The notes: generated by a model not told the origin, from the sequence alone. A stretch of 64,000 nt of DNA from Desulfomonilia bacterium (GCA_050014195.1 JBEKDT010000003.1:96001-160000), one strand, 5' to 3'; counted from the stretch's first letter, positions 18,034 to 50,312 are shown. Numbers and translations are program-made.

Positions 18034-18067
18034 TGGTTTTCTCCTCGTTCTTTATCGTAGTATCCGA

Positions 18068-20470
18068 TTACAGGAACAACGGCTTGCCCGTGGCCATGAT
18101 GTTCTCGGCCATCTTCTGGGTGTTTTCCGTCTTCCAGAGATCAACAAAGGCCTCGCGCTCGAGCGTCATAAGGTGCTCTTCGCTCACGAGCGTACCGGTG
18201 GGGACATCGCCGCCGGACATACATACACAGATCTTCTTGGCGATGAATTCCATGTGAGGCGTGATGTATCCGCCGCCCTTCATGTTGTTCATCTCGGCCC
18301 AGATCATACCCTGGGCCTCGCGTCCGAACACCGGGATCTTGGTCTTGAGCGGCGGGGCATACCCGTCATCCACCATCTTGAGGACTTCCTTCTTGGCCTC
18401 GCCGATGAGGTTGTCTCGGTTCATGACGATGCGGTCTGCGGCGCCGAGGAATCCCCTGGTGCGTGCCTGCTCGGCAGAGTTGGAAACCTTGGCCTGGGCC
18501 ACTGCCATGAACGCGTTGATGAAGAATCCACCGTAATCGGTGACCTTGGCATCTTCGGGCTTGGAGGTGATGATCTTCCTCCAGAGGTTGATCATGCCGC
18601 AGCCGCCAGGGACCAGACCTGCGCCGATCTCCACCAGACCCATGAACAGGTCGGTGTGTGCCACGATCCTGTCGGCTGACAGGCAGGTCTCACAGCCGCC
18701 GCCCAGGGTGAGACCGTAGGGTGCTGCCACCACGGGGTAGTTTGTGTACCTGGTCGCCATGATCCCTTTGTGGACGTTCCTGATGAATCCGTCGATCTCA
18801 TCAAACTTGCCGGCCTTGGCAAGCCCCAGCATGAATGCCAGGTCGCCGCCTGCGGAGAATGCCCCCGGCATGCCTCCGGCCTGGTTGCCGATGACCATGC
18901 CCACGCCGTTGACCCCGACATACTCGCCGGCCTTGGCCATGAAGTCCACCATCTCCTTGTTGATGGCGTTCATCTTGGAGTGGAATTCGAGGCAGAACAC
19001 GCCGTCGCCGATGTCGATGAGCGAGCAGGAACCCGATGTGAGGGCCGTCTTTTTCTCGGCCTTGAAGTTGTTGAGGTCCAGGGCCTTGTCGCTGACCTTC
19101 ACGGGCTTGTAGCTCTCCGAGGCTAAGTCGTAGAACATCTTCTTGCCCTTTTCGAGCTTATAGAACGAAGAGTTCTTCTTGAGCATCTTCTTGACTTTCT
19201 CGGGAACCTTGAGGCCTTCTTTCTCCATCTTCTCAACGGATTCCTTCACGCCGATGGCGTCCCATGTCTCGAATGGGCCCATCTCGAAGTTGTAGCCCCA
19301 CTTCATGGCGTTGTCGATCTCGACCACCGTGTCTGAGATCTCGGGGATGCGGTTGGCCGCATAGATGAACTGTGGAGCCGTGGCCTTCCAGGCAAACTTG
19401 GCTGCCTTGTCGTCGCCGTAGAGGACCGCCTTGAGCTTCTCAGGAAGGGTCTTGGCCTTCTTTGCTGCATCGATGCAGGGGAAGCTGACCTTGTCGAAGG
19501 TCTCGTATTCGCCAGTCTTGGGGTTGATGGCCTTCTTGATCTTCTTCCACTCGGGGGTTATCTCTTTCTTATAGAAGCCAGCCTTGGTCTTGTTGCCAAG
19601 CAGCTTCTTATCAAGCATTGCCTGGAGGAATTCGGGCAGCTTGAATACATCTCTGGCCTCGTCATTGGGGCAGAGATCATAGGTGTTCTTCATGACGTGG
19701 GTCATGGTGTCAAGGCCGACCAAGTCGCCGGTGCCGAAGATGGCGGTCTTGGGGCGGCCCAGCGGTGCGCCGAAGATGGCGTCCACCTCGGGGATGGTGA
19801 ACCCATCCTCGAGCATGGTCTTCAGGACTGCGCCGGTCCCGTGGATACCGATGCGGTTGCCGATGAAGTTCGGTGTATCCTTTGCCCAGACGATGCCTTT
19901 TCCAAGCCTGCTCCCGCCGAACTCTGCCACGAAGTCCAGGATCTCTTTCTTGGTGTTCTCACCAGGGATGATCTCCAAGAGATGCATGTAGCGGACAGGG
20001 TTGAAAAAGTGTGTGCCCAAGAAGTGCTCTTTGAAGCCCTTGCTTAAGCCCTCTGACATGGCCTTGAGGGGAATGCCTGAAGTGTTGGAGGATACGATGG
20101 CGTCCGCCTTGCGCACCTTGTCGATGCGGGCGAACAGCTGCTGCTTGATCTTGAGGTTCTCGACGACCACCTCGATGATCCAGTCGCACTCTGAGAGCTT
20201 GTCGAAATCGTCTTCCAGGTTGCCGGTGGTAATGCGCATTGCATGGTCCTTGTTGTAGAATAACGGCGGCTTCGCCTTCATGGCGCCTTCCAGACCCATA
20301 GTGACAATCCGGTTCCTGGCCTTTTTATCCTTCTTCTCTTCTTCTTTCAGGTCGAATGGAACGATGTCGAGCAGGAGCATTTCCACGCCTGCTGCGGCGA
20401 GGAGCGCAGCAATGCCGCCTCCCATTATCCCAGACCCGATAACCGCGGCCTTATTGATTCTCCTGACCAT
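18068..20470 (-). CDS. fadN: 3-hydroxyacyl-CoA dehydrogenase/enoyl-CoA hydratase (FadN type)
   Basis: GSGIMG, SSNTSG, HFFNP, C-terminal crotonase domain (LGGGCE, GLVEIGAGL). Confidence 0.92.
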   Translation of the reverse strand: MVRRINKAAVIGSGIMGGGIAALLAAAGVEMLLLDIVPFDLKEEEKKDKKARNRIVTMGLEGAMKAKPPLFYNKDHAMRITTGNLEDDFDKLSECDWIIEVVVENLKIKQQLFARIDKVRKADAIVSSNTSGIPLKAMSEGLSKGFKEHFLGTHFFNPVRYMHLLEIIPGENTKKEILDFVAEFGGSRLGKGIVWAKDTPNFIGNRIGIHGTGAVLKTMLEDGFTIPEVDAIFGAPLGRPKTAIFGTGDLVGLDTMTHVMKNTYDLCPNDEARDVFKLPEFLQAMLDKKLLGNKTKAGFYKKEITPEWKKIKKAINPKTGEYETFDKVSFPCIDAAKKAKTLPEKLKAVLYGDDKAAKFAWKATAPQFIYAANRIPEISDTVVEIDNAMKWGYNFEMGPFETWDAIGVKESVEKMEKEGLKVPEKVKKMLKKNSSFYKLEKGKKMFYDLASESYKPVKVSDKALDLNNFKAEKKTALTSGSCSLIDIGDGVFCLEFHSKMNAINKEMVDFMAKAGEYVGVNGVGMVIGNQAGGMPGAFSAGGDLAFMLGLAKAGKFDEIDGFIRNVHKGIMATRYTNYPVVAAPYGLTLGGGCETCLSADRIVAHTDLFMGLVEIGAGLVPGGCGMINLWRKIITSKPEDAKVTDYGGFFINAFMAVAQAKVSNSAEQARTRGFLGAADRIVMNRDNLIGEAKKEVLKMVDDGYAPPLKTKIPVFGREAQGMIWAEMNNMKGGGYITPHMEFIAKKICVCMSGGDVPTGTLVSEEHLMTLEREAFVDLWKTENTQKMAENIMATGKPLFL

Positions 20471-31921: not shown

Positions 31922-33835
31922 TTAGACCAAGTCCCGGTGGAGCTCATCCCAGAGCAGCCGCTGGTAGCGCTGGACATCCTTGGGGCTCATGCTCATGCCC
32001 CAGGCCTCGTACATGCTCTGTATGGCCTTGACCACATCTTCGAACCTGATGTCCAGGCCCAGCACGCCCACCATGTCTTCCTTTTCATTCAGGACAGGTG
32101 CGGAGACCGTAATGATCAATGCGCCGGTGATGCGGGAGGTGGCAACCCCGCTCACATGCAGCTTGCCGGTCTCTACGGCCTTGATGAACCACTCTCGATC
32201 GGAGCAGTCCTCATCTTCTTTCATCTTGTGCATGAACTGTCCGCGGTACTCGGGCTGGGTGATGTTCTTGGTGATCTTTATCCCGTCCATGCCCGTGACA
32301 TAGGCGAACTGGATGAACGGATACTCCTTGATGAACTCGGTGATGACCGGTTCCTGCTTCTTAGGTTTCATGCTCTTCATGTCTTCATTTTCAAGAAGCT
32401 TCTCTATGAGCTGGCTTGCATACTCCTGGGCCTCGTACTTGATAAGGTCGAAGCCCGACAGGAAGATGTGGGGAATGAAACGCAAGGTGAGCTTTTCCAG
32501 CTCCTCATCCGTCATGGAGGTGTTGCGACCATCCTCGAAATCCTTGACGATCTGCTGGTACATCCTGGTAATGCCCGGATGGCGCTTATCGATCTTATTG
32601 GAATCCTCGATCTTGAAGTGGGAGTTGACCCAGTGCGCAATGCCGGCCTTGCCAGACTTGTCCGTGATGGCTATCTCGATGGGCCGGTTCAGGAACTTAC
32701 CCGTGTTGAAGATATTATAGATCTCCTCGTTCTTCACCAGTCCGTCTGCGTGGATGCCCGCCCTGGTCACGTTGAAGTTCCTGCCCACAAAGGGGTAATT
32801 ACCTGGGATGTGGTAGTTGATCTCCGTGTTCACATATTCGGCCAACTCGGTGATGGCCTTGGTGTCGATGCTCCCATCGTGGCCTCTCAGCGACAGATAC
32901 TCAAAGACCATGGCCTCGATGGGTGTATTGCCGGTGCGCTCGCCGAACCCGAAGATAGCACAGTTGACCGCGCTGCACCCGTATAGCCAGGCCGTAGAGG
33001 CGTTTACCACCACCTTATGGAAATCATTGTGCCCGTGCCATTCCAGCAGGTGCCCGGGGACACCGGCATCGTCGATGAAGGCTCGAACCAGTTTGTCCAC
33101 GGACCTGGGCAGCGCAGCCCCTGGGAATGACACGCCGTAGCCCATAGTGTCGCAGAGCCTGATCTTCACGTCGACACCCGATTCTTCCCTGAGCTTCATG
33201 AGCTCCCGGGCAAAGGGGATGCAGAATCCATAGATGTCGGCTCTGGTTACGTCCTCGAAGTGGCACCGGGGGATGATGTCCTGGCTTAAGGCATCCTTGA
33301 CTATCCCGAGGTAGTTGTTCAGGGCCTTGCGCCTTGACCACCCGAGCTTGAGATAGATGTGGTAGTCGGACACGGAAGTGAGAATGCCGGTCTCATCGAT
33401 GCCGAATTCACGGACCAGTTTCAGGTCATCCTTGTGGGCGCGGATCCAGGAGGTCACCTTGGGGTAGTTATATCCCCTGGCGAGGCAGGACTCCACAGCG
33501 GCCTTGTCCTTTTTCGAGTAGAGGAAGAACTCGCTCACCCTGATGAGACCGGTGTCTCCGCTGATGCGGTGAAGAAAATCGTAGATGCATTCTATATGAT
33601 CCACCGAGAACGGGGTCATGGACTGCTGCCCGTCCCGGAAGGTCGTGTCGGTGATAAAGATGTCTTCCGGGGGCTGAATGGGGATCATCCGCATATCGAA
33701 GTCCACTTTCGGAACCTCGTCATAGTTGAATATGGAGCGGTAGTAGTTCCCGCGCTCGATCTCCTGGATACCGGATTCAAAATTCTTGCCCGGGGTATAA
33801 TAGAACACCTTCTTTTCTGGGTCCCATCTGGCCAT
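31922..33835 (-). CDS. Re-citrate synthase-like DRE-TIM enzyme with C-terminal Cache-like domain
   Basis: ITDTTFRDGQQ, WHGHNDF, GERTGN, TRAGIHADG; upstream of icd; tail DCSDREWF...ITVSAPV...GVLGLDI. Confidence 0.82.
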   Translation of the reverse strand: MARWDPEKKVFYYTPGKNFESGIQEIERGNYYRSIFNYDEVPKVDFDMRMIPIQPPEDIFITDTTFRDGQQSMTPFSVDHIECIYDFLHRISGDTGLIRVSEFFLYSKKDKAAVESCLARGYNYPKVTSWIRAHKDDLKLVREFGIDETGILTSVSDYHIYLKLGWSRRKALNNYLGIVKDALSQDIIPRCHFEDVTRADIYGFCIPFARELMKLREESGVDVKIRLCDTMGYGVSFPGAALPRSVDKLVRAFIDDAGVPGHLLEWHGHNDFHKVVVNASTAWLYGCSAVNCAIFGFGERTGNTPIEAMVFEYLSLRGHDGSIDTKAITELAEYVNTEINYHIPGNYPFVGRNFNVTRAGIHADGLVKNEEIYNIFNTGKFLNRPIEIAITDKSGKAGIAHWVNSHFKIEDSNKIDKRHPGITRMYQQIVKDFEDGRNTSMTDEELEKLTLRFIPHIFLSGFDLIKYEAQEYASQLIEKLLENEDMKSMKPKKQEPVITEFIKEYPFIQFAYVTGMDGIKITKNITQPEYRGQFMHKMKEDEDCSDREWFIKAVETGKLHVSGVATSRITGALIITVSAPVLNEKEDMVGVLGLDIRFEDVVKAIQSMYEAWGMSMSPKDVQRYQRLLWDELHRDLV

Positions 33836-37729: not shown

Positions 37730-38608
37730 TCAGAGCCCGCGTGCCCATTCGGGCCGGATCATCTTCGAGGAGGTGTCGGCAAGTGCCTGGTCGATGAGCC
37801 GCAGGATCTCCTCCTTGTCCCGGGGCAGGGTCCCGCTGATGGGCAGGTAGTTGGATGCGTGTTCCGAGCCGAACTTGCAGTTTGTGAGCGTGAGGTCCTC
37901 TACAAACCACCTGAGCTCCTGAAGAGACTGCTTCTTGTCGATCAGCTTGAACCCGTCGCCCATGATCTTCTCTTCATAGACCTTCTCGTATGGTCCCAGC
38001 ATGAGAGTGAGCGTGGCCAGGAAGTGCGGGTCGATGGCATTGGCAACACGGGCCGAGTCCTTGGCATGGGCATGGCTGTCGTCCACGCCGCCGAGGCCCA
38101 GGATGATGAAGGTGGACATGCGCAGACCCGCATCAATTGCCTTTCTGCTCACCTCGATGATCTGCTTTGAGGTCGCACCCTTCTTGATTTTTTTCAGGAG
38201 TGCGTCGTTGCCCGTCTCGATGCCGAGATAAAGGACATCGAGCTTGCGTGCCTTGAACTCCTTGAGCTCTTCTTTTGTCTTGGCTTTCAGGTTGGTGGGC
38301 CCAGCATAGGTGCTGATGCGTTCCAGCTTGGGGAACCTCTGATTCATGAGGTCGAGGACCTTGATGATAAAGTCCGCTGGTGCAGCCAGGGGATCTCCAT
38401 CGGCCAAAAAGATCTTCCTGGTGTTCGGGTATTGCCACGACATCTCAATGACATCCTTTTCAACCTCTTCAAAAGGACGCACCAGGAATTTCTTGGTCTT
38501 GTACATGGCGCAGAACAGACACCTGTTCCACGAGCAGCCCAAAGTTACCTGGAAGATGAGCGACCTCGCCTCGGAGGGCGGCCTGAATAGGGGCATATCG
38601 TATTCCAT
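37730..38608 (-). CDS. Radical SAM protein (RPPSEA-type, uncharacterised)
   Basis: RPPSEA, CSWNRCLFC. Confidence 0.9.
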   Translation of the reverse strand: MEYDMPLFRPPSEARSLIFQVTLGCSWNRCLFCAMYKTKKFLVRPFEEVEKDVIEMSWQYPNTRKIFLADGDPLAAPADFIIKVLDLMNQRFPKLERISTYAGPTNLKAKTKEELKEFKARKLDVLYLGIETGNDALLKKIKKGATSKQIIEVSRKAIDAGLRMSTFIILGLGGVDDSHAHAKDSARVANAIDPHFLATLTLMLGPYEKVYEEKIMGDGFKLIDKKQSLQELRWFVEDLTLTNCKFGSEHASNYLPISGTLPRDKEEILRLIDQALADTSSKMIRPEWARGL

Positions 38609-39371: not shown

Positions 39372-40643
39372 TTATACGAGGGGAATTCCTGTACGTCGTG
39401 CAATATGCTTCAGGTAAAAATGAGACAGTCTGGTTGCAGGCTTTTTCATCTCTCTCATGTGCTCCATTATAGCCCTTTCCATCCTCTCCGACTCTATGAA
39501 CGCCTTGTGGGAGGTCTCTCTAAAGTAATCTTCACTGCTATCCCACAGATGGGCCGGAAAGCGTTCAGACCATTGTGTCTCAAGATCCATGATACTTCCC
39601 TGAACCAAGGGTCTCACGGAATCATATCGAAGGACGGCATGGATATGATACGCCTCATGCCGCCACCAGAATGAATCTTCGGAATAAACACTGCCCCCCT
39701 TGGACGTATCCGTGAAAGGTGCTGCAGGCATGAACGGTTTGAATGGTGTAAGGCACGGGGCGGAACCCGCAGTAACAAATATCCTGATCTTATCGTCCTG
39801 GTGCAGTTCCACTGCCATGGACCCTGTTGTCTGGGACCTCCTGATCAATGGATCTGATGCATGCATACAAACATCACGGTTGAAGCCTTCGGATGGTGTA
39901 GTTCCATAGTGGCTTCTCAGCATGCTAAAAACATCGGTTATTCCGATACTGCCCTTTCCCTTCAGTATGGCGGCATCATTTTGCCTTTTCCTGAAAACAC
40001 TGCCGGCAAAATAAGTAGTAATGGGGTTGGTTAAGATACTCAAATCGGTACCCTTGGCAAAGGAAGACCGGTCCCAATCTGCCGTGATGGTAATCCCATT
40101 TGAGATAACGGCAAAATCGTTATGGAGTTTGATGGCATAGTCCCTGCCGGCAGTCTCCAGGATCATGATGCCGTCCCGATCCATAATAATAAACGAGTTC
40201 ATATAACTGAACTTCTTGTCACGGTAACCGCATGGACCGGCCTGTCCATATTTACTCAAGAGATCGATAATGACACCCGCCGCCTCTTCGGCTGTGCCAG
40301 ACCTTTCAAGCGCAAGCCGCAAGAGATCCATCCCGATGAGCCCCGGCTCCTTCTCGGGTTTGATCTTTGTGAACAGGGCCTCATTCCCGATGACTACGCC
40401 CTTCTCATTCACACCCATCTCCGCTCCCCAGATCCAGAAGGGCTTACTTATAACAATAGCGTGCGTATAACTTACCTGGGGAATCGCAGTATGGGTGCAT
40501 TGCAGGACTTCCCTTTCAGGATGGCTTTTCCGGGGGATCGAAAGGACAAGCTGCGCTTCGTCAGCCTCCCTGTCCGAGTTCTTTCCGAAAGTGCTTATAC
40601 CGGAACTGGTAAATTTTGGTCCAATTCCAATAGTATCGCACAT
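39372..40643 (-). CDS. C69 dipeptidase/secernin-like Ntn hydrolase
   Basis: MCDT N-terminal Cys, GKNSDR, WGAEMGVNE, GMDLLRLALER; GGAGG SD. Confidence 0.88.
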   Translation of the reverse strand: MCDTIGIGPKFTSSGISTFGKNSDREADEAQLVLSIPRKSHPEREVLQCTHTAIPQVSYTHAIVISKPFWIWGAEMGVNEKGVVIGNEALFTKIKPEKEPGLIGMDLLRLALERSGTAEEAAGVIIDLLSKYGQAGPCGYRDKKFSYMNSFIIMDRDGIMILETAGRDYAIKLHNDFAVISNGITITADWDRSSFAKGTDLSILTNPITTYFAGSVFRKRQNDAAILKGKGSIGITDVFSMLRSHYGTTPSEGFNRDVCMHASDPLIRRSQTTGSMAVELHQDDKIRIFVTAGSAPCLTPFKPFMPAAPFTDTSKGGSVYSEDSFWWRHEAYHIHAVLRYDSVRPLVQGSIMDLETQWSERFPAHLWDSSEDYFRETSHKAFIESERMERAIMEHMREMKKPATRLSHFYLKHIARRTGIPLV

Positions 40644-40845
40644 AGAATCTCCTCCTCTTGTAAAGATGGGTTCGTGAAAGAACAAATTTATACATTTCAT
40701 ACTATACGTAAGTCTCCCTTGAGAAAACACGAAACTGTGCTTCTCGTAACAAGATTCCTGTGAACTCCCTTCTAAGGAGGTGCACCGGTTGATGATCATT
40801 TTCCCTGCTTAAGTACCGGCTTTTTGTTTCCGGATCCTCTCATCC

Positions 40846-40874
40846 TTGACCAACCCAATTTTCCACCCTATAAC
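40846..40874 (+). promoter_or_regulatory. sigma70 promoter predicting a leaderless transcript
   Basis: TTGACC-17-TATAAC, then 6 nt to ATG 40881. Confidence 0.55.
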
Positions 40875-40880
40875 AGCCTC

Positions 40881-41774
40881 ATGCATGTCCCCGAACATCT
40901 CGTCATCCGGCCTCCCAGCGAGGCCAAGAGCCTTCTGATAAGGACCGTGAGAGGTTGTAACTGGAACCGGTGTCTGTTCTGCGGCATCTATGACTATTTC
41001 GACACACCCTATTCTGAGCGAGGCCTCGCTGAGGTTATCAAGGACATCGATTCGCTCTCAGACATGTACGGCGACATATTCAAGACCGCATTTTTAGGTG
41101 ATGCGAACCCCCTTGCCCTGCCCACGGATTTCCTGGTTGCGGTGCTGACGCATCTCCGGAAAAAGTTCCCTTCCCTGACGCGGGTCACCTCATATGCAAG
41201 GGCATCGAGCCTGGCCAAGAAGTCAGTCGAAGAGCTCAGGGCCATCCATGATGCCGGCCTCGACCGGGCGCACGTGGGCATGGAGAGCGGGTCGGATGCA
41301 GTGCTCAAGCTCCAGAAAAAGGGTACGAGCCAGGTCCAGCTCATCGATGCCGGTAAAAAGACCATGTCCTCGGGCATGGAGCTGTCCTATTACTTCCTTT
41401 TGGGATTGGGCGGGCAAGCACTCTGGGAGGATCACATAAAGGGTACCGCCTTGGTCATCAATGAGGTGAAGCCCCATTTCGTCCGTGTGCGTCGGCTGTG
41501 GATCCACCCCATGTCGCGACTGATGGAAAAGATCAATGCCGGAGAGTTCATGGAGCAGACCCCGGAAGGCACGGTCATAGAGCTGAGGGATCTCGTCAAG
41601 GCCCTCGACCCCTCGTCTACCGTGCTCGCCTGCGATCATGCAAACAACTACATCCAGGTCTTCGGCAGGCTTGATGAGGACAAGCAAGAGATGCTGCGCC
41701 TCATCAACACGTTTCTCGAACTACCTGTACAACAGCGGCAGAACCATTATCGTTCGATACCGTCGGTTATTTAA
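40881..41774 (+). CDS. Radical SAM protein (RPPSEA-type, paralog of 37730-38608)
   Basis: RPPSEA, CNWNRCLFC, DHANNY. Confidence 0.9.
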   Translation: MHVPEHLVIRPPSEAKSLLIRTVRGCNWNRCLFCGIYDYFDTPYSERGLAEVIKDIDSLSDMYGDIFKTAFLGDANPLALPTDFLVAVLTHLRKKFPSLTRVTSYARASSLAKKSVEELRAIHDAGLDRAHVGMESGSDAVLKLQKKGTSQVQLIDAGKKTMSSGMELSYYFLLGLGGQALWEDHIKGTALVINEVKPHFVRVRRLWIHPMSRLMEKINAGEFMEQTPEGTVIELRDLVKALDPSSTVLACDHANNYIQVFGRLDEDKQEMLRLINTFLELPVQQRQNHYRSIPSVI

Positions 41775-41874
41775 TATGAGCTATTAAGCCTGTACTCCAC
41801 ACGTCTCTTTCCAGTTTTTCCTTGACTTCTCGGTGCGTTTTCTTTAAAGCCCCTAGTCTATGGCAACTGTGATC

Positions 41875-41913
41875 ATGGCAAAAAAAACGTTCGGGTTCTT
41901 CTTTTTTGATTAG
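41875..41913 (+). CDS. Phe-rich attenuator leader peptide MAKKTFGFFFFD* (in-frame upstream ATG 41860 gives MATVI-MAKKTFGFFFFD*)
   Basis: ATG GCA AAA AAA ACG TTC GGG TTC TTC TTT TTT GAT TAG: 5 Phe in 6 consecutive codons; stop abuts the antiterminator arm. Confidence 0.8.
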   Translation: MAKKTFGFFFFD

Positions 41914-41968
41914 GTCTGCCTGCGTTTAAGCTTTTTTAGATCTAGTCAAAAAAAGCCGTAGGTAGACC
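41913..41968 (+). promoter_or_regulatory. Antiterminator hairpin of the Phe attenuator
   Basis: GGTCTGCCTGCG (41913-41924) pairs with CGTAGGTAGACC (41957-41968); GCTTTTTT (41930-41937) pairs with AAAAAAGC (41949-41956). Confidence 0.75.
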
Positions 41969-41994
41969 GGTTTTGTCTACCTGCGGCTTTTTTT
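41955..41994 (+). terminator. Attenuator terminator
   Basis: GCCGTAGGTAGAC / GTCTACCTGCGGC 13-bp stem, 7-nt loop, U7 tail, about 70 nt upstream of the operon start. Confidence 0.88.
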
Positions 41995-42063
41995 ATTTTA
42001 GGGATATGAAGATCCCATCACAGGTGTGGTGGACAGTAAAATAAAGATAGGGGAGGAATTGAA

Positions 42064-43272
42064 ATGAAGAGGAGAATGAGAAATGCATTGATCATGGGAG
42101 GTATGCTGCTTGTTACCTGTATGCTTACAGCACCGGTAATCTATGCCAAGGACATCAAGGTGGGCGCTGCCATCAACCTCACCGGCCCGGCATCCACCTG
42201 GGGCCAGTACCATGCCAAGGGACAGCAGGACTACTTCAAGTATGTCAACGAGGTCAAGGGTGGGGTCAAGGGCAACAAGATCCAGATGATCACGGTTGAT
42301 ACCGCATATAAGGCGCCCGAGGCCGTAGCTGCGGTAAGGAAGTTCGCCATGCAGGACAAAGTGGACATGATCGCCACCTGGAGCGCAGGAGAAGGCATCC
42401 AGGCAAAGCCTCTGCTCCAGCAGTTCAAGATCCCAGCCATCAACTACTCCACGGCCTGGGAGATCCTCCAGCCGCCTGTTGACTATATGTACCTGCCTTT
42501 CGGCAACTACAAGCTCGACTGCCAGGTGGTCATGGAATATATTGCTGCCGTGCATAAAGGCCCCGGTGCACCGAAGGTCGGCCTGCTTACTTACAACAAC
42601 CCCTACGGCCGCTCCATTCACGAGCCGAGCAGGGAATACGCCAAGGGTAAGAACATAGACTTGGTCACCATCGAGGAGTTCCCGCCACAGACGGTGGACC
42701 TCACCACCGAGCTCTTGCGGCTCAAGCAGAAAGGCGCTCAGTATGTGTTCATACAGATGCTGCCTGCTGCCATTATCAGCACGCTCAAGAGCGCAGACCG
42801 CATCGGTTACAACCCCGTCTTCATCGGCACCTGGACTTCAACCGACCCCGATTTTTTTAAAAACGGCAAAGGCCTCATCCGCGATCGCGTGAAGATGCAG
42901 TTCTGCGGCGGCCTGCCATCGGACAAGGCCCCGGGCATGAAGATCATGGAGGAGCTCTGGAAGCGATATAAGAGCGTCGAGTCCTTTGATACCGCCTACT
43001 GGGAGGGCGTGGTCGTGGGCATGATCATGGAGAAGGCCTTCATCAGGGCCCAGGAGAAGTTCGGACAAATCACACCCGAGAACATCAACAAGGCCCTCGA
43101 GACATTCAATAACGAGGACTTCGGCGGTCTGGTCCCCAATATTACCTATACCAAGGAAGACCACGGTGCATCCTTCACGGGCCGTATCGTCCAGATACAT
43201 GAGAACGGCACATTCACCCCGTTGACCAACTTCTTCACACCCGGCAAGGACAAGATCCAGATACTGAAGTAG
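42064..43272 (+). CDS. Liv/HAAT-family ABC substrate-binding protein
   Basis: Signal peptide, IKVGA..NLTGP, YVNEVKGGV.G.KI, D..Y; periplasmic binding protein type 1. Confidence 0.9.
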   Translation: MKRRMRNALIMGGMLLVTCMLTAPVIYAKDIKVGAAINLTGPASTWGQYHAKGQQDYFKYVNEVKGGVKGNKIQMITVDTAYKAPEAVAAVRKFAMQDKVDMIATWSAGEGIQAKPLLQQFKIPAINYSTAWEILQPPVDYMYLPFGNYKLDCQVVMEYIAAVHKGPGAPKVGLLTYNNPYGRSIHEPSREYAKGKNIDLVTIEEFPPQTVDLTTELLRLKQKGAQYVFIQMLPAAIISTLKSADRIGYNPVFIGTWTSTDPDFFKNGKGLIRDRVKMQFCGGLPSDKAPGMKIMEELWKRYKSVESFDTAYWEGVVVGMIMEKAFIRAQEKFGQITPENINKALETFNNEDFGGLVPNITYTKEDHGASFTGRIVQIHENGTFTPLTNFFTPGKDKIQILK

Positions 43273-43285
43273 CAAAGGATAACGA

Positions 43286-44137
43286 GTGAGGGCATTTCGA
43301 GGGCATCCACGAATATTCTCCACCGAACTGATGGCGCTCAGGCAGGCCGAGCTGGAAGTCAAAGGCCTGTCTCTCGCCTTCGGCGGCATCCAGGCCGTCA
43401 AGAATGTGGACCTGTCCGTCCACACCGGCGAACTCGTGGCCGTCATCGGGCCCAACGGCGCAGGTAAGACCAGCCTTCTGAACTGCATCACCGGATACTA
43501 CAAGGCAACCTCAGGTGACATCATCTTCAATGGCCGAAGCATCGTGCGCATGCATACACACAAGCTCACCTCGCTGGGCATCGGCAGGACCTTCCAGAAC
43601 ATCGAGCTCTTCCCGGGCATGACCGTTCTCCAGAACATGCTGCTGGCCCGCCACACCCGCTCCTCCTATAACTTCGGCCTGGCGTGCCTGTATTCCCCTT
43701 CAGTCAAAAAAGAAGAGATCGCTCACCATGAGATATTGGAAGAGATCATCGATTTCCTTGAGATGCAGTCCATACGCAAGGAGCTCGTAGGATCACTGCC
43801 CTATGGCCTTCGCAAGCGGGTGGAGCTCGGCAGGGCCCTTGCCTCGGAGCCCAGCCTGCTCGTGCTGGACGAACCCTTTGCCGGCATGACCCTGGAAGAA
43901 AAGGAAGACATGGTACGCTTCCTGCTGGAACTGCACGACGGCTGGGGCCAGACCATGATCCTGGTGGAGCACGACATGTCCATCGTCATGAGCATATCCG
44001 AGCGGGTCATTGTGCTCAACTTCGGGGAGAAGCTTGCCGAGGGCCTGCCGGAGGAAATCCAGGACCACCCCGAGGTCATCAAGGCCTACCTCGGAGACAC
44101 CACGGACCTTGGCTTGAGCATACAGGAAAGGGCATAG
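43286..44137 (+). CDS. ABC ATP-binding protein (LivG-like); start may be ATG 43331
   Basis: GPNGAGKT, RTFQN, LPYG, LDEP, VEHDM, AYLG. Confidence 0.92.
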   Translation: MRAFRGHPRIFSTELMALRQAELEVKGLSLAFGGIQAVKNVDLSVHTGELVAVIGPNGAGKTSLLNCITGYYKATSGDIIFNGRSIVRMHTHKLTSLGIGRTFQNIELFPGMTVLQNMLLARHTRSSYNFGLACLYSPSVKKEEIAHHEILEEIIDFLEMQSIRKELVGSLPYGLRKRVELGRALASEPSLLVLDEPFAGMTLEEKEDMVRFLLELHDGWGQTMILVEHDMSIVMSISERVIVLNFGEKLAEGLPEEIQDHPEVIKAYLGDTTDLGLSIQERA

Positions 44138-44146
44138 GGGTAGAGC

Positions 44147-46096
44147 ATGGGCGAAGGAAACTCTTCCAGGAAGGTCAGCACCGAGCATCTCGAAGAATTG
44201 GCCGAGGGCACCCTGCCCCAGGCCCTTGCAAAGCAGGCCGAGCTTTTTGGTAACAAGCATCTCGCCATCCGAGAGAAGGCCTACGGCATCTGGCAGACCT
44301 ACACGTGGGAAGACTACCTGTCGTATGTGAAATACACCGGGCTTGGGCTCAAGGCCTTGGGGCTTGGCCGTCACGACCACGTGGGCATCATCATGAACAA
44401 CCACCCCGAGTGGCTGTTCACCCAGCTTGGCTCCCAGGCCTTCGGCGCTGTTACATTAAACCTATTCACCTCGGCCATTGCAAACGAATTGGCCTCTGCC
44501 CTGAACCGCATCCAGGCGAGCTTCGTCATCGTGCAGGACCAAGAACAGGTGGACAAGCTCCTGGAGCAGATGGGCAAACTCACCCACCTTAAGTTCATCA
44601 TCTACGTGGACCCCACGGGTATGAGGGGTTATGCGAGCAACAAGATCCTCATGAGCTATAAAGACCTGCTGGACCTCGGCAGGAAGCATGAGGCCAGGCA
44701 CCCGGGTCTTTTTGCCGAGGAACTTTCCAAGGGCAAGGTGGGGGATGTTGCCCATATGATCCTGACATCGGGCACCACGGGCATATCCAAGCTCGCCATG
44801 CTCAGCCACAAGAACTATGCGGACATGGGAACGAAGTGGACCTTGTCTTCTCCGGTCTATATCGGGGCCAACTGGCTTTCCATGACCCCTCCAGCCTGGA
44901 TCGTGGACCAGATGTGGGGTTTCGGCGTGGCGCTCTTAGGCGGCATGACCATGAACTTCCCCGAGACGCCCGAGACCGTGACCGCCGACTTCCGCGAGAT
45001 CGGGCCGAGTCTGCTCATTTCTTCCTCACGCTTCTGGGAGGACCTAGCCTCAAAGATCAGGGTCAAGATAGATGATGCAGGGCCCATCAACCGGGCCTTC
45101 TTTGCGTTTGCCGAGCGTATCGGCTTTGCCTCTATCGACCGGAAATCATCCAAAAAGCCCATCCCTTTTGGCCTACGGCTCCTGCATGGCCTGGCCAAGA
45201 CTTTTGTGTTCAATCACCTGATGGACCGTGTGGGCTGCTCACAGTTCATCAGCGCATACACCGGGGGCCATCCCATCAGTCCAGATGTAATCCGTTTTTT
45301 CAGGGCCTGCGGATTGAACCTCAAGCAGTGCTACGGCCTTACAGAGACCTGCGGAATCTTCCAGGTGCAGCCCGATGACGAGGTGAAGCCCGAGACCGTA
45401 GGCAAGCCGCTGCCCGGCACCCAAGTGAAACTGTCCAAGGACCAGGAGGTCATGGTTCTCTCCGGCTCGATCTTTGAAGGATACTACAATGACTATGAAT
45501 CCACCCAAAAGGCCTTTGAAGACGGGTGGTTTTTGACCGGCGATGCAGGCTACTTCGACGATGACGGACACCTCATCATCATCGGGAGAAAGCAGGACAT
45601 CATCCGCGACAAGGAAGGCAACGCATTCTCCCCTGACTTCATTGAGACCAGGCTTAAATTCTCTTTATATATAAAGGAAGCGGTCATCTTCGGTGAAGGC
45701 CGCCCCTTCATTACGGCGCTCATCAACATCGATATGGGTAACGTGGGCAACTGGGCCGAGGACCGCATGATCCCCTATACGACGTATACCGATCTCTCTC
45801 AAAGGCCCGAAGTGGAACAACTGATCCTTGAAGAGGTGAAAAAGGTCAACACCGAGCTGCCGGGGCCCATGAAGATCAAGCGGTTCATCCTGCTCTACAA
45901 GCTGCTGGATGCCGACGATGAGGAGCTCACCCGAACGGGTAAGGTGAGGAGGCGTTTCGTCTATGGCCTTTATCTACCCATGATCGAGGCCATGTACTCG
46001 GAACTCAAGGAGCTCCCGGTAAAGGGCAAGGTCCGCTACCGTGACGGCCAGGTGGGCATGATCGAAACTATAGCCCACGTGATTACCCTTAGCTGA
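44147..46096 (+). CDS. AMP-binding acyl-CoA synthetase (long-chain ligase-like) embedded in the ABC operon
   Basis: TSGTTG..K, YGLTE, TGDAG, ELTRTGKVRR. Confidence 0.9.
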   Translation: MGEGNSSRKVSTEHLEELAEGTLPQALAKQAELFGNKHLAIREKAYGIWQTYTWEDYLSYVKYTGLGLKALGLGRHDHVGIIMNNHPEWLFTQLGSQAFGAVTLNLFTSAIANELASALNRIQASFVIVQDQEQVDKLLEQMGKLTHLKFIIYVDPTGMRGYASNKILMSYKDLLDLGRKHEARHPGLFAEELSKGKVGDVAHMILTSGTTGISKLAMLSHKNYADMGTKWTLSSPVYIGANWLSMTPPAWIVDQMWGFGVALLGGMTMNFPETPETVTADFREIGPSLLISSSRFWEDLASKIRVKIDDAGPINRAFFAFAERIGFASIDRKSSKKPIPFGLRLLHGLAKTFVFNHLMDRVGCSQFISAYTGGHPISPDVIRFFRACGLNLKQCYGLTETCGIFQVQPDDEVKPETVGKPLPGTQVKLSKDQEVMVLSGSIFEGYYNDYESTQKAFEDGWFLTGDAGYFDDDGHLIIIGRKQDIIRDKEGNAFSPDFIETRLKFSLYIKEAVIFGEGRPFITALINIDMGNVGNWAEDRMIPYTTYTDLSQRPEVEQLILEEVKKVNTELPGPMKIKRFILLYKLLDADDEELTRTGKVRRRFVYGLYLPMIEAMYSELKELPVKGKVRYRDGQVGMIETIAHVITLS

Positions 46097-46113
46097 GGTA
46101 TTGGAGATACGGC

Positions 46114-46992
46114 ATGGAATTTTTCTTTCAGCTTCTCATCAACGGCTTAAGCATCGGTCTTCTCTACGGACTGTCCGCCCTGGGCTTTGTCATGATCTTC
46201 AAGTCGTCATCCGTGCTGAATTTTGCCCATGGCCAACTGCTTGCCATAGGGGCCTTCATGTTCCTGGTCCTGGTATCCTGGGCCAAGGTCCCGGTGATCC
46301 TTGCCTTCCTCCTCACGCTGGCCCTCAGCTTTGTGCTCGGTTTTGTAGTGGAGCGTATCTTCCTCAGGCCTTTGATCGGGGAGTCCCTCATCTTTGTCAT
46401 CATGCTCACCGTAGGCCTGGCATCCATGTTCAAGGGCCTGCTCCTGTTCTTCTTCGGCGGCAACCTCCAGACATACCCCGACTTTCTGCCGCAGGGCCTT
46501 GCCATTACCCTAGGCAACATCTATATCCCGCCGGTATATGTGGCATCCTCGCTCCTGGGGGGTGTCTTCCTGTTACTCTTCGGGCTCTTCTTCAAGTACT
46601 CTTCCCAGGGCATCTACATGCGCTCGGTGGCCGACAATCAGACGGCAGCCCTGTCGCTGGGGGTCCACGTGAAGAAGGTCTTTGCCCTTTCCTGGGCCAT
46701 TGCCGCAATGGTGGCAGGCATGAGCGGCATCGTGCTGGGGATCATCAACGGCATTAATGTTCATGAAATAAGCTCGATCGGTCTAAAGGTCTTCCCGGTG
46801 GTGATCCTGGGCGGGCTGGACAGCATCGGCGGGGCCATCATCGGCGGCATCATCATCGGACTGCTGGAGACCTTCACCTCCGGGTACATCTCTCCATCAC
46901 TACGCGATGTGATCCCGTATATCGTCCTGGTGTTCATCCTGCTCGTGAAGCCGTACGGCCTCTTCGGGCTTGTTGAGATCGAGAGGGTGTAG
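46114..46992 (+). CDS. ABC permease (LivH-like)
   Basis: NGLSIG..Y.L.ALGF, NFAHG, ILGGLDS, KPYGLFG. Confidence 0.92.
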   Translation: MEFFFQLLINGLSIGLLYGLSALGFVMIFKSSSVLNFAHGQLLAIGAFMFLVLVSWAKVPVILAFLLTLALSFVLGFVVERIFLRPLIGESLIFVIMLTVGLASMFKGLLLFFFGGNLQTYPDFLPQGLAITLGNIYIPPVYVASSLLGGVFLLLFGLFFKYSSQGIYMRSVADNQTAALSLGVHVKKVFALSWAIAAMVAGMSGIVLGIINGINVHEISSIGLKVFPVVILGGLDSIGGAIIGGIIIGLLETFTSGYISPSLRDVIPYIVLVFILLVKPYGLFGLVEIERV

Positions 46993-47005
46993 GAGAGAAT
47001 CGACG

Positions 47006-48076
47006 ATGAAACGGCTGCAATTTCACCCCTGCGGGAACTACAAGGAACACTACGGGGCAGAACTCACCATCTTTGAGACCGACTTCGGAAGGATGTGGGC
47101 CTGCATCTCTCTGGTATTCCTCTTTGGCGTGGCTCCCTTCATCTGCAGCCCATACCTCCTCTATGTCCTGAACATCACCGGCATCACGGCCATCGCCGCC
47201 CTGGGCCTGAACATCCTTGTCGGGTTTACCGGCCAGATATCGCTGGGCCACGGGGCATTCTTCGGGGTCGGTGCATATGCCGGCGCCATCCTGGCCACCA
47301 CCGTGGGGCTGCCCTTCTGGGTGGCCGTGCCGGCTGCCGGGCTGGTCACGGCATTTGTGGGCATGATCTTCGGCATCCCATCAGGCAGGCTCAAGGGTCT
47401 ATACCTGACCATCGCAACCCTGGCGGGCCAGTTCATCATCGAATATATCCTGGTGCACTGGGACAGCCTCACCAAAGGGACCATGGGAATCATGCTGCCT
47501 ACAGCCTCGTTATTCGGCCTTGCCATTAACTCGGACATGCGATTTTTCTATGTGATTTCCATATGCCTGGTTTGTACCACCCTGGTTGCATCAAACCTCA
47601 TGCGCACACGGTACGGCAGGGCCTTCATCGCCATCAGGGACAATGACCGGGCGGCCGAGGGCATGGGTATACCCATCTTTTTCTACAAGCTCCTCTCCTT
47701 TGCCGTCAGCTCATTCTATGCAGGTTTTGCAGGCGCCCTCTGGGCATTCTACATGAAGAGTATCTCCACCGAACCCTTCACGCTGGGGTTGTCTGTCGAA
47801 TACCTTGCCATGGTCATCATCGGGGGGCTGGGCAGCATTCCCGGCTCCATCTTCGGTGCGGTGTTCATCACAGGCCTCAATGAGATCCTGCGCTTTGCCA
47901 CGGATGCCATGATGAACATCGGGGCTTTCCACGGCTTCGGATTAAACATGGCATCATTGCGCGAATTCGCCTTCGGGCTGGCCATTGTTCTGTTCATCCT
48001 CTTCGAGCCCAAGGGACTTGCCGAACTGTGGAGGATAGTGCGTTCCTCCTTCAGATTATGGCCGTTCTCATACTGA
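47006..48076 (+). CDS. ABC permease (LivM-like)
   Basis: GLNILVGFTGQISLGH, LKGLYLTIATL, IIGGLGS, EPKGL. Confidence 0.92.
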   Translation: MKRLQFHPCGNYKEHYGAELTIFETDFGRMWACISLVFLFGVAPFICSPYLLYVLNITGITAIAALGLNILVGFTGQISLGHGAFFGVGAYAGAILATTVGLPFWVAVPAAGLVTAFVGMIFGIPSGRLKGLYLTIATLAGQFIIEYILVHWDSLTKGTMGIMLPTASLFGLAINSDMRFFYVISICLVCTTLVASNLMRTRYGRAFIAIRDNDRAAEGMGIPIFFYKLLSFAVSSFYAGFAGALWAFYMKSISTEPFTLGLSVEYLAMVIIGGLGSIPGSIFGAVFITGLNEILRFATDAMMNIGAFHGFGLNMASLREFAFGLAIVLFILFEPKGLAELWRIVRSSFRLWPFSY

Positions 48077-48085
48077 GGTGACGAC

Positions 48086-48898
48086 ATGGAAGCCCTGAAC
48101 GCCGATACCCTGCTCCAGCTCAACAACATCAGCGTAGTCTATTCGGATGTCATCCAGGTCCTCAAGGGCGTATCCCTGCAGGTGCCGAGGGGCCGCATCA
48201 TCTCTCTCCTGGGCAGCAACGGCGCAGGCAAGACCACGACGCTCAAGGCCATCTCAGGTCTGCTCAAACCGGAAAACGGCAAGGTCACGGACGGCAATAT
48301 TATCTATGATGGCAAACATGTCCAGAATCTCTCACCCGAAGAGATCACCAGGCTCGGCATCATCCAGGTCCTCGAGGGCAGGCAGCCCTTCAAATACCTC
48401 ACTATCGAAGAAAACCTGAGGGTCGGTACAGCCACGCGCTGGACCAAGCCTTATAAAAAGGACCTAGAAATGGTCTACAATTATTTCCCGACCCTGGTGA
48501 AGCGCAGGAAGACTTTGGCCGGATACTGCAGCGGCGGCGAGCTTCAAATGGTTGTCATGGGCAGGGCCCTCATGGCCCACCCCAAGCTTCTCCTGCTGGA
48601 TGAGCCGTCACTCGGTCTTGCACCGCTGATTGTGAAAGAGATCTTCCGGATCATCAAGCGGATCAACGAGGAGCAGGGGACCACCATTATCCTGGTAGAG
48701 CAGAATGCCAATATGGCCCTGCAGATCGCCCATTTCGGATACGTCCTGGAAAACGGCCGTGTCGTGATGGAGGGCGAGGCGGGGCAGCTGAAGGAAAACC
48801 CGGATGTAAAGGAGTTCTACCTGGGTGTGAGCGCAGGCGGTGCAGCACGGTCGTATCGGGACGTAAAGTCATACAAGCGAAGGAAGAGGTGGTTGTAA
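48086..48898 (+). CDS. ABC ATP-binding protein (LivF-like)
   Basis: GSNGAGKTT, SGGE.QM, LDEPSLGLAP, VEQNA. Confidence 0.92.
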   Translation: MEALNADTLLQLNNISVVYSDVIQVLKGVSLQVPRGRIISLLGSNGAGKTTTLKAISGLLKPENGKVTDGNIIYDGKHVQNLSPEEITRLGIIQVLEGRQPFKYLTIEENLRVGTATRWTKPYKKDLEMVYNYFPTLVKRRKTLAGYCSGGELQMVVMGRALMAHPKLLLLDEPSLGLAPLIVKEIFRIIKRINEEQGTTIILVEQNANMALQIAHFGYVLENGRVVMEGEAGQLKENPDVKEFYLGVSAGGAARSYRDVKSYKRRKRWL

Positions 48899-49003
48899 AA
48901 CGCGGCTGGACGCTGGCCTGTTGGTTAAGGAAGAGAGATATATTCTCTTAACCTCGCACCTAACACCAAAAAGCACCATGCCTATTTTTTTAAGGAGGAT
49001 GTT

Positions 49004-50260
49004 GTGAGCAAGTATCTTGATGATCTCGAAACCATGTCCCGATCAGAGCGTCAGTCATATCAGGACAAGCGGCTGGCCGAAATGGTACGTACCGGCTTTG
49101 AGAGGTCTCCCAAGCTCAGGTCCGTCTTACAGGATCGCGGTTTGAAACCTGTAGATATCCAGACTGTACAGGACCTAGAGAAGCTCCCCATTATTTCGCG
49201 GGAACAGATTGTAGGTATCGAGGCTCAGAATCCTCCCTATGGCGGTCTTGCTGATCCTGATGCGCACATCGAGCGTATCTTCATCTCCCCTGGGCCGGTC
49301 TATGAACCTCATCTTGGCTCTGATGACCCGCTGTGGGCCAGGGCTTACAAGGCAGCCGGATTTACTAAAGGCGACACTGTCCTGAACGCCTTCTCTTACC
49401 ATATGGTGGCAGCCGGGCTCACATTTCATGGAGGACTCAACATGGTGGGCGCAACAGTGGTCCCCTCAGGCACCTCAACCTCCCAGCAGCAGGTGCAGCT
49501 CATCAAAGATTTGAATATCACCGGTTATACCGGAACGCCGAGCTTCCTCATGTCCATCATCGACAAAGCGCGAGAAATGGGGTTTGATTTCTCAAAAGAT
49601 TTCAAAGTCAAGCGTGCCAGCTTTGCTGCCGAACCGCTCCAGCCGTCCCTAAGGCAGCGGTTCGAGACCGAGTATGGCATTGACACCTTCCAGATGTACG
49701 GCGCCACAGAGGTCGGTGATGTGGCGTATGAGTGCTCTGAGAAAAAGGGCTGGCACCTGTGCGAGGAAGTGATTGTTGAGATCGTGGACCCTGCAACGGG
49801 TATGCATGTAAATCCTGGTGAACTGGGCGAAGTTGTTGTAACACGTCTGAATCACATATTTTTCTTGTTGCGCTTCGGCACCGGCGACCTTTCAAGCATC
49901 ATCGAAGAGCCCTGCCCCTGCGGCAGGACATCATTACGGCTCGCAGGTATTGCAGGAAGGGTGGGCGATGCCGTTAAGGTGCGGGGCATGTTCGTCGCCC
50001 CAAGCCAGGTGAAAAGGGTCTGTGAGGGCTTCGAAGGGATTGGGGTCCAACTCGTCATCACCCGCTCCGGCCACCGGGACATCCTGACCGCAAGGCTCGA
50101 CACCAGGGGTGTTGACAGAGACCGCCCTGCACTCCAGTTGCAGTTCGAAAAGGTCTTTCAGGAAATCTGCACTGTCAAGGTCGATGCTGTTGAGTTCCTT
50201 GAACCAAGAAGCCTTAAGGATGACGCCAAACTGTTGGTTGATGAGAGGACGTGGAACTAA
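49004..50260 (+). CDS. paaK: Phenylacetate--CoA ligase family protein
   Basis: DLEKLP, YTGTPS, YGATEVG, EIVDP, RFGTGD, CPCGR, GR..D.VKVRG; AAGGAGG SD before GTG. Confidence 0.8.
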   Translation: MSKYLDDLETMSRSERQSYQDKRLAEMVRTGFERSPKLRSVLQDRGLKPVDIQTVQDLEKLPIISREQIVGIEAQNPPYGGLADPDAHIERIFISPGPVYEPHLGSDDPLWARAYKAAGFTKGDTVLNAFSYHMVAAGLTFHGGLNMVGATVVPSGTSTSQQQVQLIKDLNITGYTGTPSFLMSIIDKAREMGFDFSKDFKVKRASFAAEPLQPSLRQRFETEYGIDTFQMYGATEVGDVAYECSEKKGWHLCEEVIVEIVDPATGMHVNPGELGEVVVTRLNHIFFLLRFGTGDLSSIIEEPCPCGRTSLRLAGIAGRVGDAVKVRGMFVAPSQVKRVCEGFEGIGVQLVITRSGHRDILTARLDTRGVDRDRPALQLQFEKVFQEICTVKVDAVEFLEPRSLKDDAKLLVDERTWN

Positions 50261-50312
50261 TCCATTGTACGAGAGATACTAATATCTGGTTTACCATGTA
50301 CTCATTTTCTTA

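Follow-up and report, generated by a model that had tools for sequence, protein, structure and literature searches.

A transporter–ligase operon behind a predicted phenylalanine attenuator in a Desulfomonilia bacterium: possible aryl-acid salvage

What does a transporter of the branched-chain amino acid type bring into the cell when its genes lie behind a leader peptide rich in phenylalanine (Phe) codons and enclose a gene for a coenzyme A (CoA) ligase? The question is raised by a 64-kb stretch of DNA from an uncultured Desulfomonilia bacterium (GCA_050014195.1, JBEKDT010000003.1:96001-160000; the whole stretch is called the window here), in which seven open reading frames (ORFs) at 42064-50260, all on the plus strand, encode a binding protein, LivG-, LivH-, LivM- and LivF-like parts of an ATP-binding cassette (ABC) importer, a FadD-like acyl-CoA synthetase, and a PaaK-like protein. 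An earlier note on this DNA had described these genes as co-oriented behind a Phe attenuator and proposed that they salvage phenylacetate for Phe biosynthesis. The coordinates, the strand, the gene families, and the leader with its terminator were all confirmed, and the seven genes are read here as one operon that is predicted to be gated by a ribosome-mediated, Phe-specific attenuator. What the operon supplies is argued below from its control, its products, and the other leader-controlled genes of the same genome.

The leader peptide and its switch

The leader ORF comes after a radical-SAM gene that ends at 41774 and before the gene for the binding protein (Table 1), and five of its last seven codons encode Phe. 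It is followed by a 13-bp hairpin of -23.2 kcal/mol with a run of T; the terminator scan gives the same hairpin on the minus strand. The region 41850-42010 folds at -57.2 kcal/mol, with z = -5.98 against 200 shuffles. A short segment, GGTCTGCCTGCG, starts at the last base of the leader stop codon and is a near-duplicate of the 3′ arm of the terminator. When the terminator 3′ arm is omitted from the fold and a ribosome footprint is set on the first Phe codon, this segment is predicted to pair with 41957-41968. The antiterminator so formed scores -28.9 kcal/mol where the terminator scores -23.2, and its z is -6.0 relative to shuffled versions of the upstream part.

On this layout, the switch would be set by the supply of charged tRNA. 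With Phe-tRNA plentiful, the ribosome would reach the leader stop codon and cover GGTCTGCCTGCG, and the terminator would form. With Phe-tRNA scarce, the ribosome would stall on the Phe codons 10-25 nucleotides (nt) upstream and leave GGTCTGCCTGCG free; the free segment would then pair with the 5′ arm of the terminator, allowing RNA polymerase to read into the operon.

Two permissive genome-wide leader scans yielded hundreds of chance ORFs and were replaced by a strict scan, which looked for a small intergenic ORF that contains a residue run and has a strong terminator behind it. Across the 4.2-Mb genome this gave 23 candidates over 22 residue classes, and the window leader was the sole match to the Phe criterion (at least four Phe in eight residues). 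With leader, hairpin and T-run, fold, and genome-wide uniqueness all in agreement, the attenuator of the earlier note is upheld as real, and attenuation of the operon by Phe is held to be highly probable. Rfam, at gathering thresholds, returned no match in the whole window. Two other leader candidates were dropped: a Thr-rich one on contig C2, which precedes purM/purN-like genes, and a Trp-containing one on contig C19, which has no suitable downstream gene on its strand.

A tentative promoter just upstream, read by eye, would place the transcript start 2-3 nt before the leader ATG; it is missing from the output of the promoter scan, and its -10 hexamer matches at three of six positions. Between the terminator and the ribosome-binding site, two small overlapping hairpins occupy 42001-42032, the second of which (CCATCAC..TGTGGTGG) recurs in close relatives, apparently with compensating changes.

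Table 1. Features of the attenuator and operon, in window coordinates
Feature	Position	Strand	Evidence
Tentative sigma-70-like promoter	41822-41850	+	TTGACT, 17-nt spacer, TAAAGC; read by eye from sequence
Leader ORF, MATVIMAKKTFGFFFFD and stop	41860-41913	+	17 codons; Phe in 5/6 codons at 41890-41907
Antiterminator 5′ strand (predicted), GGTCTGCCTGCG	41913-41924	+	Starts at last base of leader stop codon
Intrinsic terminator	41955-41994	+	5′ arm 41955-41967, loop 41968-41974, 3′ arm 41975-41987, seven T 41988-41994
Binding protein, HAAT/LivJ superfamily	42064-43272	+	Pfam Peripla_BP_6 E = 1.9e-47; N-terminus signal-peptide-like
LivG-like ABC ATPase	43286-44137	+	ABC_tran + BCA_ABC_TP_C; NF008449 253 bits against cut-off 362
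FadD11/ACSL-type acyl-CoA synthetase, 649 aa	44147-46096	+	AMP-binding (PF00501 E = 1.5e-54) + AMP-binding_C_3 (PF23562)
LivH-like permease	46114-46992	+	BPD_transp_2 E = 2.2e-32
LivM-like permease	46970-48076	+	BPD_transp_2 E = 2.1e-48
LivF-like ABC ATPase	48086-48898	+	ABC_tran; NF008626 224.9 bits against cut-off 441
PaaK-like protein, distinct subfamily	49004-50260	+	TIGR02155 197 bits against cut-off 646.3; later ANL motifs retained

The arrangement is not peculiar to the window. A scan of species-representative genomes recovered 41 related loci, all in uncultured metagenome-assembled genomes labelled Syntrophales, Smithella or Desulfomonilia, with binding-protein identities of 60-97%. 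The leader survey covered the 37 of these with upstream DNA (in L021, L036, L038 and L049 the match starts at a contig end). A leader ORF rich in Phe/Tyr (four or more of these among seven residues) stands just upstream in 28 of the 37; five more have weaker candidates (L035, L041-L043 and L045), and four have none (L037, L039, L040 and L044). Several leader types occur, ending before the stop codon in SFGFFFFD, in FFFFFV, in FYFYFFSF.GFKVCLKVS (Smithella), or in RFFSFFSFFGEVCLL.S (Syntrophales), and residues outside the Phe/Tyr run vary freely among loci. An antiterminator is predicted in all 29 sequences examined (the 28 loci and the window): a conserved GGTCTGCC segment at or near the leader end pairs with the terminator 5′ arm, with between 6/9 and 14/15 of the arm bases predicted to be paired. 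The terminator arms themselves vary by group (GCCGTAGGTAGAC versus CCGTGGGCAGA) with their complementarity preserved. The leader is also kept at loci that lack an upstream radical-SAM gene, and therefore belongs to the operon and not to the preceding gene.

A second genome sampling, which overlaps the first locus set and is not independent of it, found a binding-protein orthologue in 14/14 same-genus genomes, in 4/10 other genomes of family f1, and in 2/16 of family f2. The leader with its run of Phe precedes all 16 f1 loci (the window's own included) and neither of the two f2 loci.

Gene order is conserved as well. The series binding protein–LivG–FadD-like–LivH–LivM–LivF is constant in every locus long enough to show it, and of the 27 loci that continue for 1.3 kb or more past livF, 23 have the PaaK-like gene next. 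In the window, livF and the PaaK-like gene are separated by 105 nt, within which lies an imperfect hairpin without a T-run (48923-48952); this could be a processing or stability element.

The importer and the two ligase-like proteins

With one Peripla_BP_6 protein, two BPD_transp_2 permeases and two ABC ATPases, the HAAT/LivJHMGF-type importer set is complete. None of the seven genes reaches an NCBIfam equivalog cut-off, and for this reason the gene names are used at family level only.

The binding protein in particular is remote from the characterised branched-chain type, scoring 49.8 bits against the LivJ/LivK model NF011933 (cut-off 477) and sharing 18-19% identity with E. coli LivJ and LivK. 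Ser79, Tyr202 and Glu226 of LivJ, which we take to hold the carboxylate and ammonium groups of the ligand, align to Ala108, Leu233 and Trp257 of the window protein (residue numbers counted by hand); Thr102, Tyr150 and the Tyr/Trp18 position are kept.

The FadD-like enzyme carries an intact P-loop, TSGTTGISK, together with the later core motifs YGLTE and TGD, and the P-loop pattern TSGTTGxxK is found in 37/37 orthologues. Its gene stands between livG and livH in all loci reaching that far. The best NCBIfam match is FadD11, at 243.8 bits against a cut-off of 950, so the enzyme is not an equivalog of that family.

The PaaK-like protein matches solved PaaKs along residues 5-385 (E = 5e-50 to 1.5e-46) and scores below cut-off both for TIGR02155 (Table 1) and for NF041878 (234.2 against 700). 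Where the solved PaaKs have the P-loop ssgttgkp—present as SSGTTGKP in a PaaK on contig C4 of the same genome—it has SPGPVYEP and an 8-residue deletion. The SPGPVYEP loop is invariant in 23/23 orthologues, and the variant occurs in 119 of the best 120 database homologues listed, the exception being a 285-residue fragment. The listed homologues with this loop all come from uncultured Desulfobacterota-like sources. Such invariance argues for a functional PaaK-like protein with altered chemistry, and the protein may not be a ligase at all. The label of PaaK-like ligase given in the earlier note was therefore given up: with the P-loop missing from all 23 orthologues, the protein is not filed as a phenylacetate-CoA ligase. 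Because it lacks the P-loop and the FadD-like enzyme retains one, the latter appears the likelier activating ligase of the operon.

Other leader-controlled genes of the genome

The route to Phe that the earlier note had in mind requires an aryl-pyruvate:ferredoxin oxidoreductase (IOR), encoded by iorAB. The note had placed neither iorAB nor paa catabolic genes in the window, and this was borne out: a profile search of the 64 kb, in which the other 43 of the 50 long ORFs were also annotated, found neither, with a ferredoxin-domain match only. It had also called for a search of the whole genome (G000, rated 100% complete with 2.26% contamination), and there iorAB was found, on contig C4. Two IorA genes are present at 745 and 591 bits (cut-off 650.9), and the IorB models are reached at 227.7 bits, just below the cut-off of 237. 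The higher-scoring iorA heads a minus-strand operon with the order iorA–iorB–PaaK–ACT pair–LivJ-like binding protein–LivH–LivM–LivF–LivG–second PaaK, of which the first PaaK scores 639.7 bits against 646.3.

This operon has a switch of its own. Upstream of iorA lie a TTGACA-type promoter, a Tyr/Phe leader, MFEKTATLPYYYGFYFRRGGCP, a terminator, and an antiterminator (C4:11887-11740, minus strand; L051); the antiterminator strand overlaps the leader stop codon, and the predicted energies are -24.3 for the antiterminator and -14.8 kcal/mol for the terminator. Among the 20 family-f1 loci with upstream DNA, 16 have an iorA leader in which five or more of eight residues are aromatic, one has a Tyr-rich leader with four aromatics, two are doubtful, and one is without a leader; no such leader with at least five aromatics in eight was found at any of eight family-f2 loci. 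The leader ATGs of the two operons (window 41845-41860 and C4:11900-11885) stand some 6-9 nt past a -10-like hexamer with no Shine-Dalgarno sequence, and both peptides may be translated from leaderless transcripts.

A third switch precedes a 3-deoxy-D-arabino-heptulosonate 7-phosphate (DAHP) synthase gene on contig C10, whose product has an N-terminal ferredoxin-like domain. Here the leader, MITASAHIFFGYYFWFRKWPPVG, holds Phe, Tyr and Trp, and is again followed by a terminator and antiterminator (C10:132514-132700; L090/L092). A leader with at least six aromatics in eight is found at 21 of 23 orthologous loci, across both families, and at neither of two paralogue loci; the genome's own paralogue, on contig C21, is without one. 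Nor did the DNA ahead of pheA, of the second DAHP synthase, of the second iorAB locus, or of three further PaaK paralogues yield an aromatic-rich leader. The same type of switch is thus set on three loci, one of which, DAHP synthase, is an undoubted gene of aromatic biosynthesis, and differs in the residues read: Phe/Tyr/Trp for DAHP synthase, Tyr/Phe for iorAB, and Phe for the window operon. The leaders before iorAB and before the window operon are of the kind expected for end-product control of a biosynthetic function.

Markers of breakdown were sought across the same genome. The aerobic PaaA/PaaC family gave no match, and BamA, the marker hydrolase of anaerobic ring cleavage, was not found, its best genome match scoring 69.9 bits against a cut-off of 464. 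A further observation concerns the second iorAB locus: in the same-genus genome G012, contig C49, compared with C4:13900-18050, lacks this locus and a FrhB-like gene between conserved flanks; that paralogue is therefore dispensable.

What the operon may supply

Among CoA-dependent ways of making Phe from an external acid, the only one established to our knowledge starts with phenylacetate, which is converted to phenylacetyl-CoA, carboxylated by IOR, and finally transaminated; it occurs in a methanogen (see below) and in rumen bacteria. Applied to the window, the Liv-type ABC system would import from outside a carboxylic acid from which Phe can be made, with phenylacetate or a similar phenyl-substituted acid as the most probable candidate. 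Once inside, the acid would be trapped as its CoA thioester; the embedded FadD-like ligase is the most probable catalyst of this step, and some accessory role would be left to the P-loop-less PaaK-like protein. Phenylacetyl-CoA would then be reductively carboxylated by the IorAB encoded on the other contig, under its own Tyr/Phe attenuator, and transaminated to Phe. The presence of a ligase within the importer block is what points to a carboxylic-acid substrate trapped as a CoA thioester, and induction by uncharged tRNA-Phe would be the signature of supply and not of breakdown. An anabolic, Phe-supplying role is favoured because the Phe attenuator is conserved, iorAB and DAHP synthase are under leader control, and PaaA/C and BamA were not found.

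Judged from sequence, an anabolic role induced by Phe starvation is well supported. For the fuller claim—that the operon carries out aryl-acid salvage towards Phe—we infer which acid is bound, what the ligase accepts, and that carbon flows on to Phe, and put the probability at roughly 55%. Of the salvage scheme in the earlier note, the anabolic and not catabolic direction stands, resting on the Phe control, the presence of iorAB, and the missing PaaA/C and BamA; the role it gave the PaaK-like protein as a ligase is put in doubt.

Several findings weigh against this reading. The operon is not adjacent to iorAB, which lies on another contig, and an ior-like pair occurs near the operon in just one of the 41 related loci (L035). 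Two same-genus genomes that carry the operon, G012 and G003, gave no IorA match; both negatives are uninformative, as a contig end interrupts the G012 iorAB operon within paaK, and the G003 assembly has no part of the 20-kb ior region, so that true absence and missing assembly are indistinguishable there. The genome search for pheA also proposed in the earlier note found the gene for chorismate mutase-prephenate dehydratase intact. The genome also encodes chorismate synthase and DAHP synthases and has a de novo route to Phe; with pheA and the shikimate genes intact, salvage would therefore be facultative and not required. As to the ligases, the FadD-like enzyme resembles long-chain ACSL/FadD11 proteins and not known aryl-acetate ligases, the PaaK-like protein is without its ATP-binding P-loop, and its gene is missing downstream of livF in 4 of the 27 loci (L024, L031, L037 and L045). 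The structural search, for which an AlphaFold2 model of the binding protein was used (predicted local distance difference test score 86.7), adds to these points. Its nearest solved structure is 3lkb from Thermus, which was crystallised with valine (Z 42.8; 26% identity); the second is 4n03, crystallised with a fatty acid (Z 40.5); and the phenylpyruvate and aromatic-acid binders of Rhodopseudomonas palustris come lower (Z about 36). In a pairwise alignment, 3lkb is likewise without equivalents of Tyr202 and Glu226. On this model, the ligand of the binding protein could belong to more than one class.

Three other explanations of the locus were weighed. The Phe attenuator would fit direct scavenging of the amino acid equally well, and the operon could be an importer of Phe, or of Phe and Tyr, that is induced by Phe starvation, with the ligase-like genes as passengers or in an unrelated activation step. 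The annotation of the E. coli Liv system names phenylalanine beside the branched-chain amino acids as its cargo, the valine in 3lkb is an amino acid ligand, and Smithella-type leaders mix Phe with Tyr codons. Such an importer would find it hard to explain, however, why the FadD-like gene lies inside the transporter block in every locus reaching that far, with its P-loop intact in 37/37 orthologues; the replacement of LivJ Ser79, Tyr202 and Glu226 by Ala, Leu and Trp and the score for NF011933, about a tenth of its cut-off, also speak against it, and we consider it unlikely. Somewhat less likely again is that the substrate is another phenyl acid—phenylpropionate, phenyllactate, or a longer phenylalkanoate—activated by the ACSL-type ligase and shortened or converted to phenylacetyl-CoA or phenylpyruvate. 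The role would still be anabolic, and the long-chain ACSL/FadD11 character of the ligase, the fatty-acid binder in second place of the structural search, and the beta-oxidation genes of the genome (including thiolase and 3HCDH/ECH at window 16819-20470) would all agree with it, as would the origin of the DNA: the sequence at window 41700-50300 was traced in 24 listed DNA sequencing runs from 23 studies, all of them peat or wetland metagenomes and 15 of them flagged as possible sources, with no RNA run listed. Nothing specific supports any such substrate, however, the operon holds no dedicated conversion enzymes, and we know of no organism in which a route from these acids to Phe has been established.

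The third explanation to be weighed is that the operon takes up fatty or aromatic acids generally, or for catabolism, and that the small ORF and hairpin merely form the terminator of the radical-SAM gene. That gene (40824-41774) is co-oriented and ends 180 nt before the terminator, and related transporter and ligase clusters in R. palustris are catabolic (PMC3223731). The leader and antiterminator are nevertheless kept in Smithella- and Syntrophales-type loci without an upstream radical-SAM gene, the codon run holds where other parts of the leader peptide change, and the PaaA/C and BamA markers were not found in the genome; this explanation is accordingly regarded as very improbable. Returning to salvage towards Phe, a wider and more tentative proposal, to which we give somewhat less than an even chance, is that of an aromatic 'attenuon', in which residue-specific leaders coordinate DAHP synthase (Phe/Tyr/Trp), the IOR operon with its transporter and PaaKs (Tyr/Phe), and the Phe-only operon of the window. 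The last of these would be an uncharacterised aryl-acid scavenging module, and the SPGPVYEP protein a derivative of PaaK that no longer adenylates and works in some other way, perhaps as a sensor, perhaps as a partner to the ligase or the transporter. If this were true, leader peptides would be built-in functional labels for widespread misannotated 'branched-chain amino acid' transporters.

The separate parts of the system have known counterparts. The pheL-pheA leader-peptide attenuator, known from E. coli and other gamma-proteobacteria (PMC3082878), shares with the predicted switch a short leader ORF bearing a Phe codon run, competing terminator and antiterminator structures, and control by ribosome stalling. 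In contrast to it, the window leader controls a transporter/ligase operon, and no leader was found before this genome's pheA; the antiterminator strand abuts the stop codon, Rfam recognises no element, and the host is uncultured and Desulfobacterota-like. An aryl-acid/IOR route to aromatic amino acids is known from Methanococcus maripaludis (Porat et al. 2004, as cited in PMC4162585). IorAB with neighbouring PaaK genes and the anabolic direction (proposed here) are common to both, whereas the present host keeps an intact shikimate pathway and uses leader-peptide regulation, and its window operon, on a separate contig from iorAB, has a FadD-like ligase and a P-loop-less PaaK-like protein.

On the transport side, anaerobes commonly have Liv-type ABC systems that are linked to acyl-CoA ligases, and the HAAT systems of R. 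palustris are induced by their substrate. The operon of the window differs from the latter in having its ligase inside the transporter block and a switch that is predicted to sense Phe-tRNA. The R. palustris study (PMC3223731) describes HAAT (LivJ-like) systems such as the RPA1789 system, which lies beside a p-coumarate-CoA ligase, and a thermal-shift screen in which most COG0683 proteins bind aromatic, fatty or dicarboxylic acids and not Leu/Ile/Val. The likeness to these systems (4jb0, 4f8j, 4dqd) covers the LivJ-fold binding protein, LivHMGF-type parts, the link to a CoA ligase, and acids as substrates in place of branched-chain amino acids, the last of these being our inference for the window; theirs are catabolic, and sequence identity is 15-16%. 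E. coli LIV-I (LivJ/LivK-HMGF) has the same five component families and is annotated as also carrying Phe, and differs in that the three LivJ ligand positions are replaced in the window protein and two ligase-like genes are added. The best solved relatives of the PaaK-like protein are PaaK1 and PaaK2 of Burkholderia cenocepacia (2y27, 2y4n, 2y4o) and a Bacteroides PaaK (4r1l), from which the altered loop and the deletion set it apart.

A full-text literature search returned no paper linking leader peptides or attenuators with PaaK, IOR, or transporters of this kind, and neither PMC11304471 nor PMC6167468 bears on how this pathway is regulated. Taken singly, attenuators with a Phe leader, Liv-type importers of acids with ligases, and an IOR route run in the anabolic direction are all known; what is new is the set of residue-specific leaders by which both iorAB and a transporter/ligase operon are tied to the supply of aromatic amino acids in uncultured Desulfobacterota of peat, along with a P-loop-less subfamily of PaaK, which is singled out here for biochemistry. 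The conserved leader labels the operon as answering a shortage of Phe, just as iorAB is labelled for Tyr/Phe and DAHP synthase for Phe/Tyr/Trp, and ribosome-mediated attenuation would thereby extend to the transport and salvage operons of a poorly studied phylum. It also yields a testable assignment: aryl-acid cross-feeding in peat, which would spare the cell the costly shikimate route.

Two further features of the window are recorded. Just upstream of the operon, a weak C45/peptidase_C69-like proenzyme (39372-40799, minus strand) lies between two radical-SAM genes, at 37730-38608 (minus strand) and 40824-41774 (plus strand), the second of which accompanies the operon in its closest relatives only. 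Farther upstream, 31922-33835 on the minus strand encodes a 637-aa protein that joins an HMGL-like domain of the pyruvate carboxyltransferase type to a Cache/PDC sensor domain, an unusual architecture.

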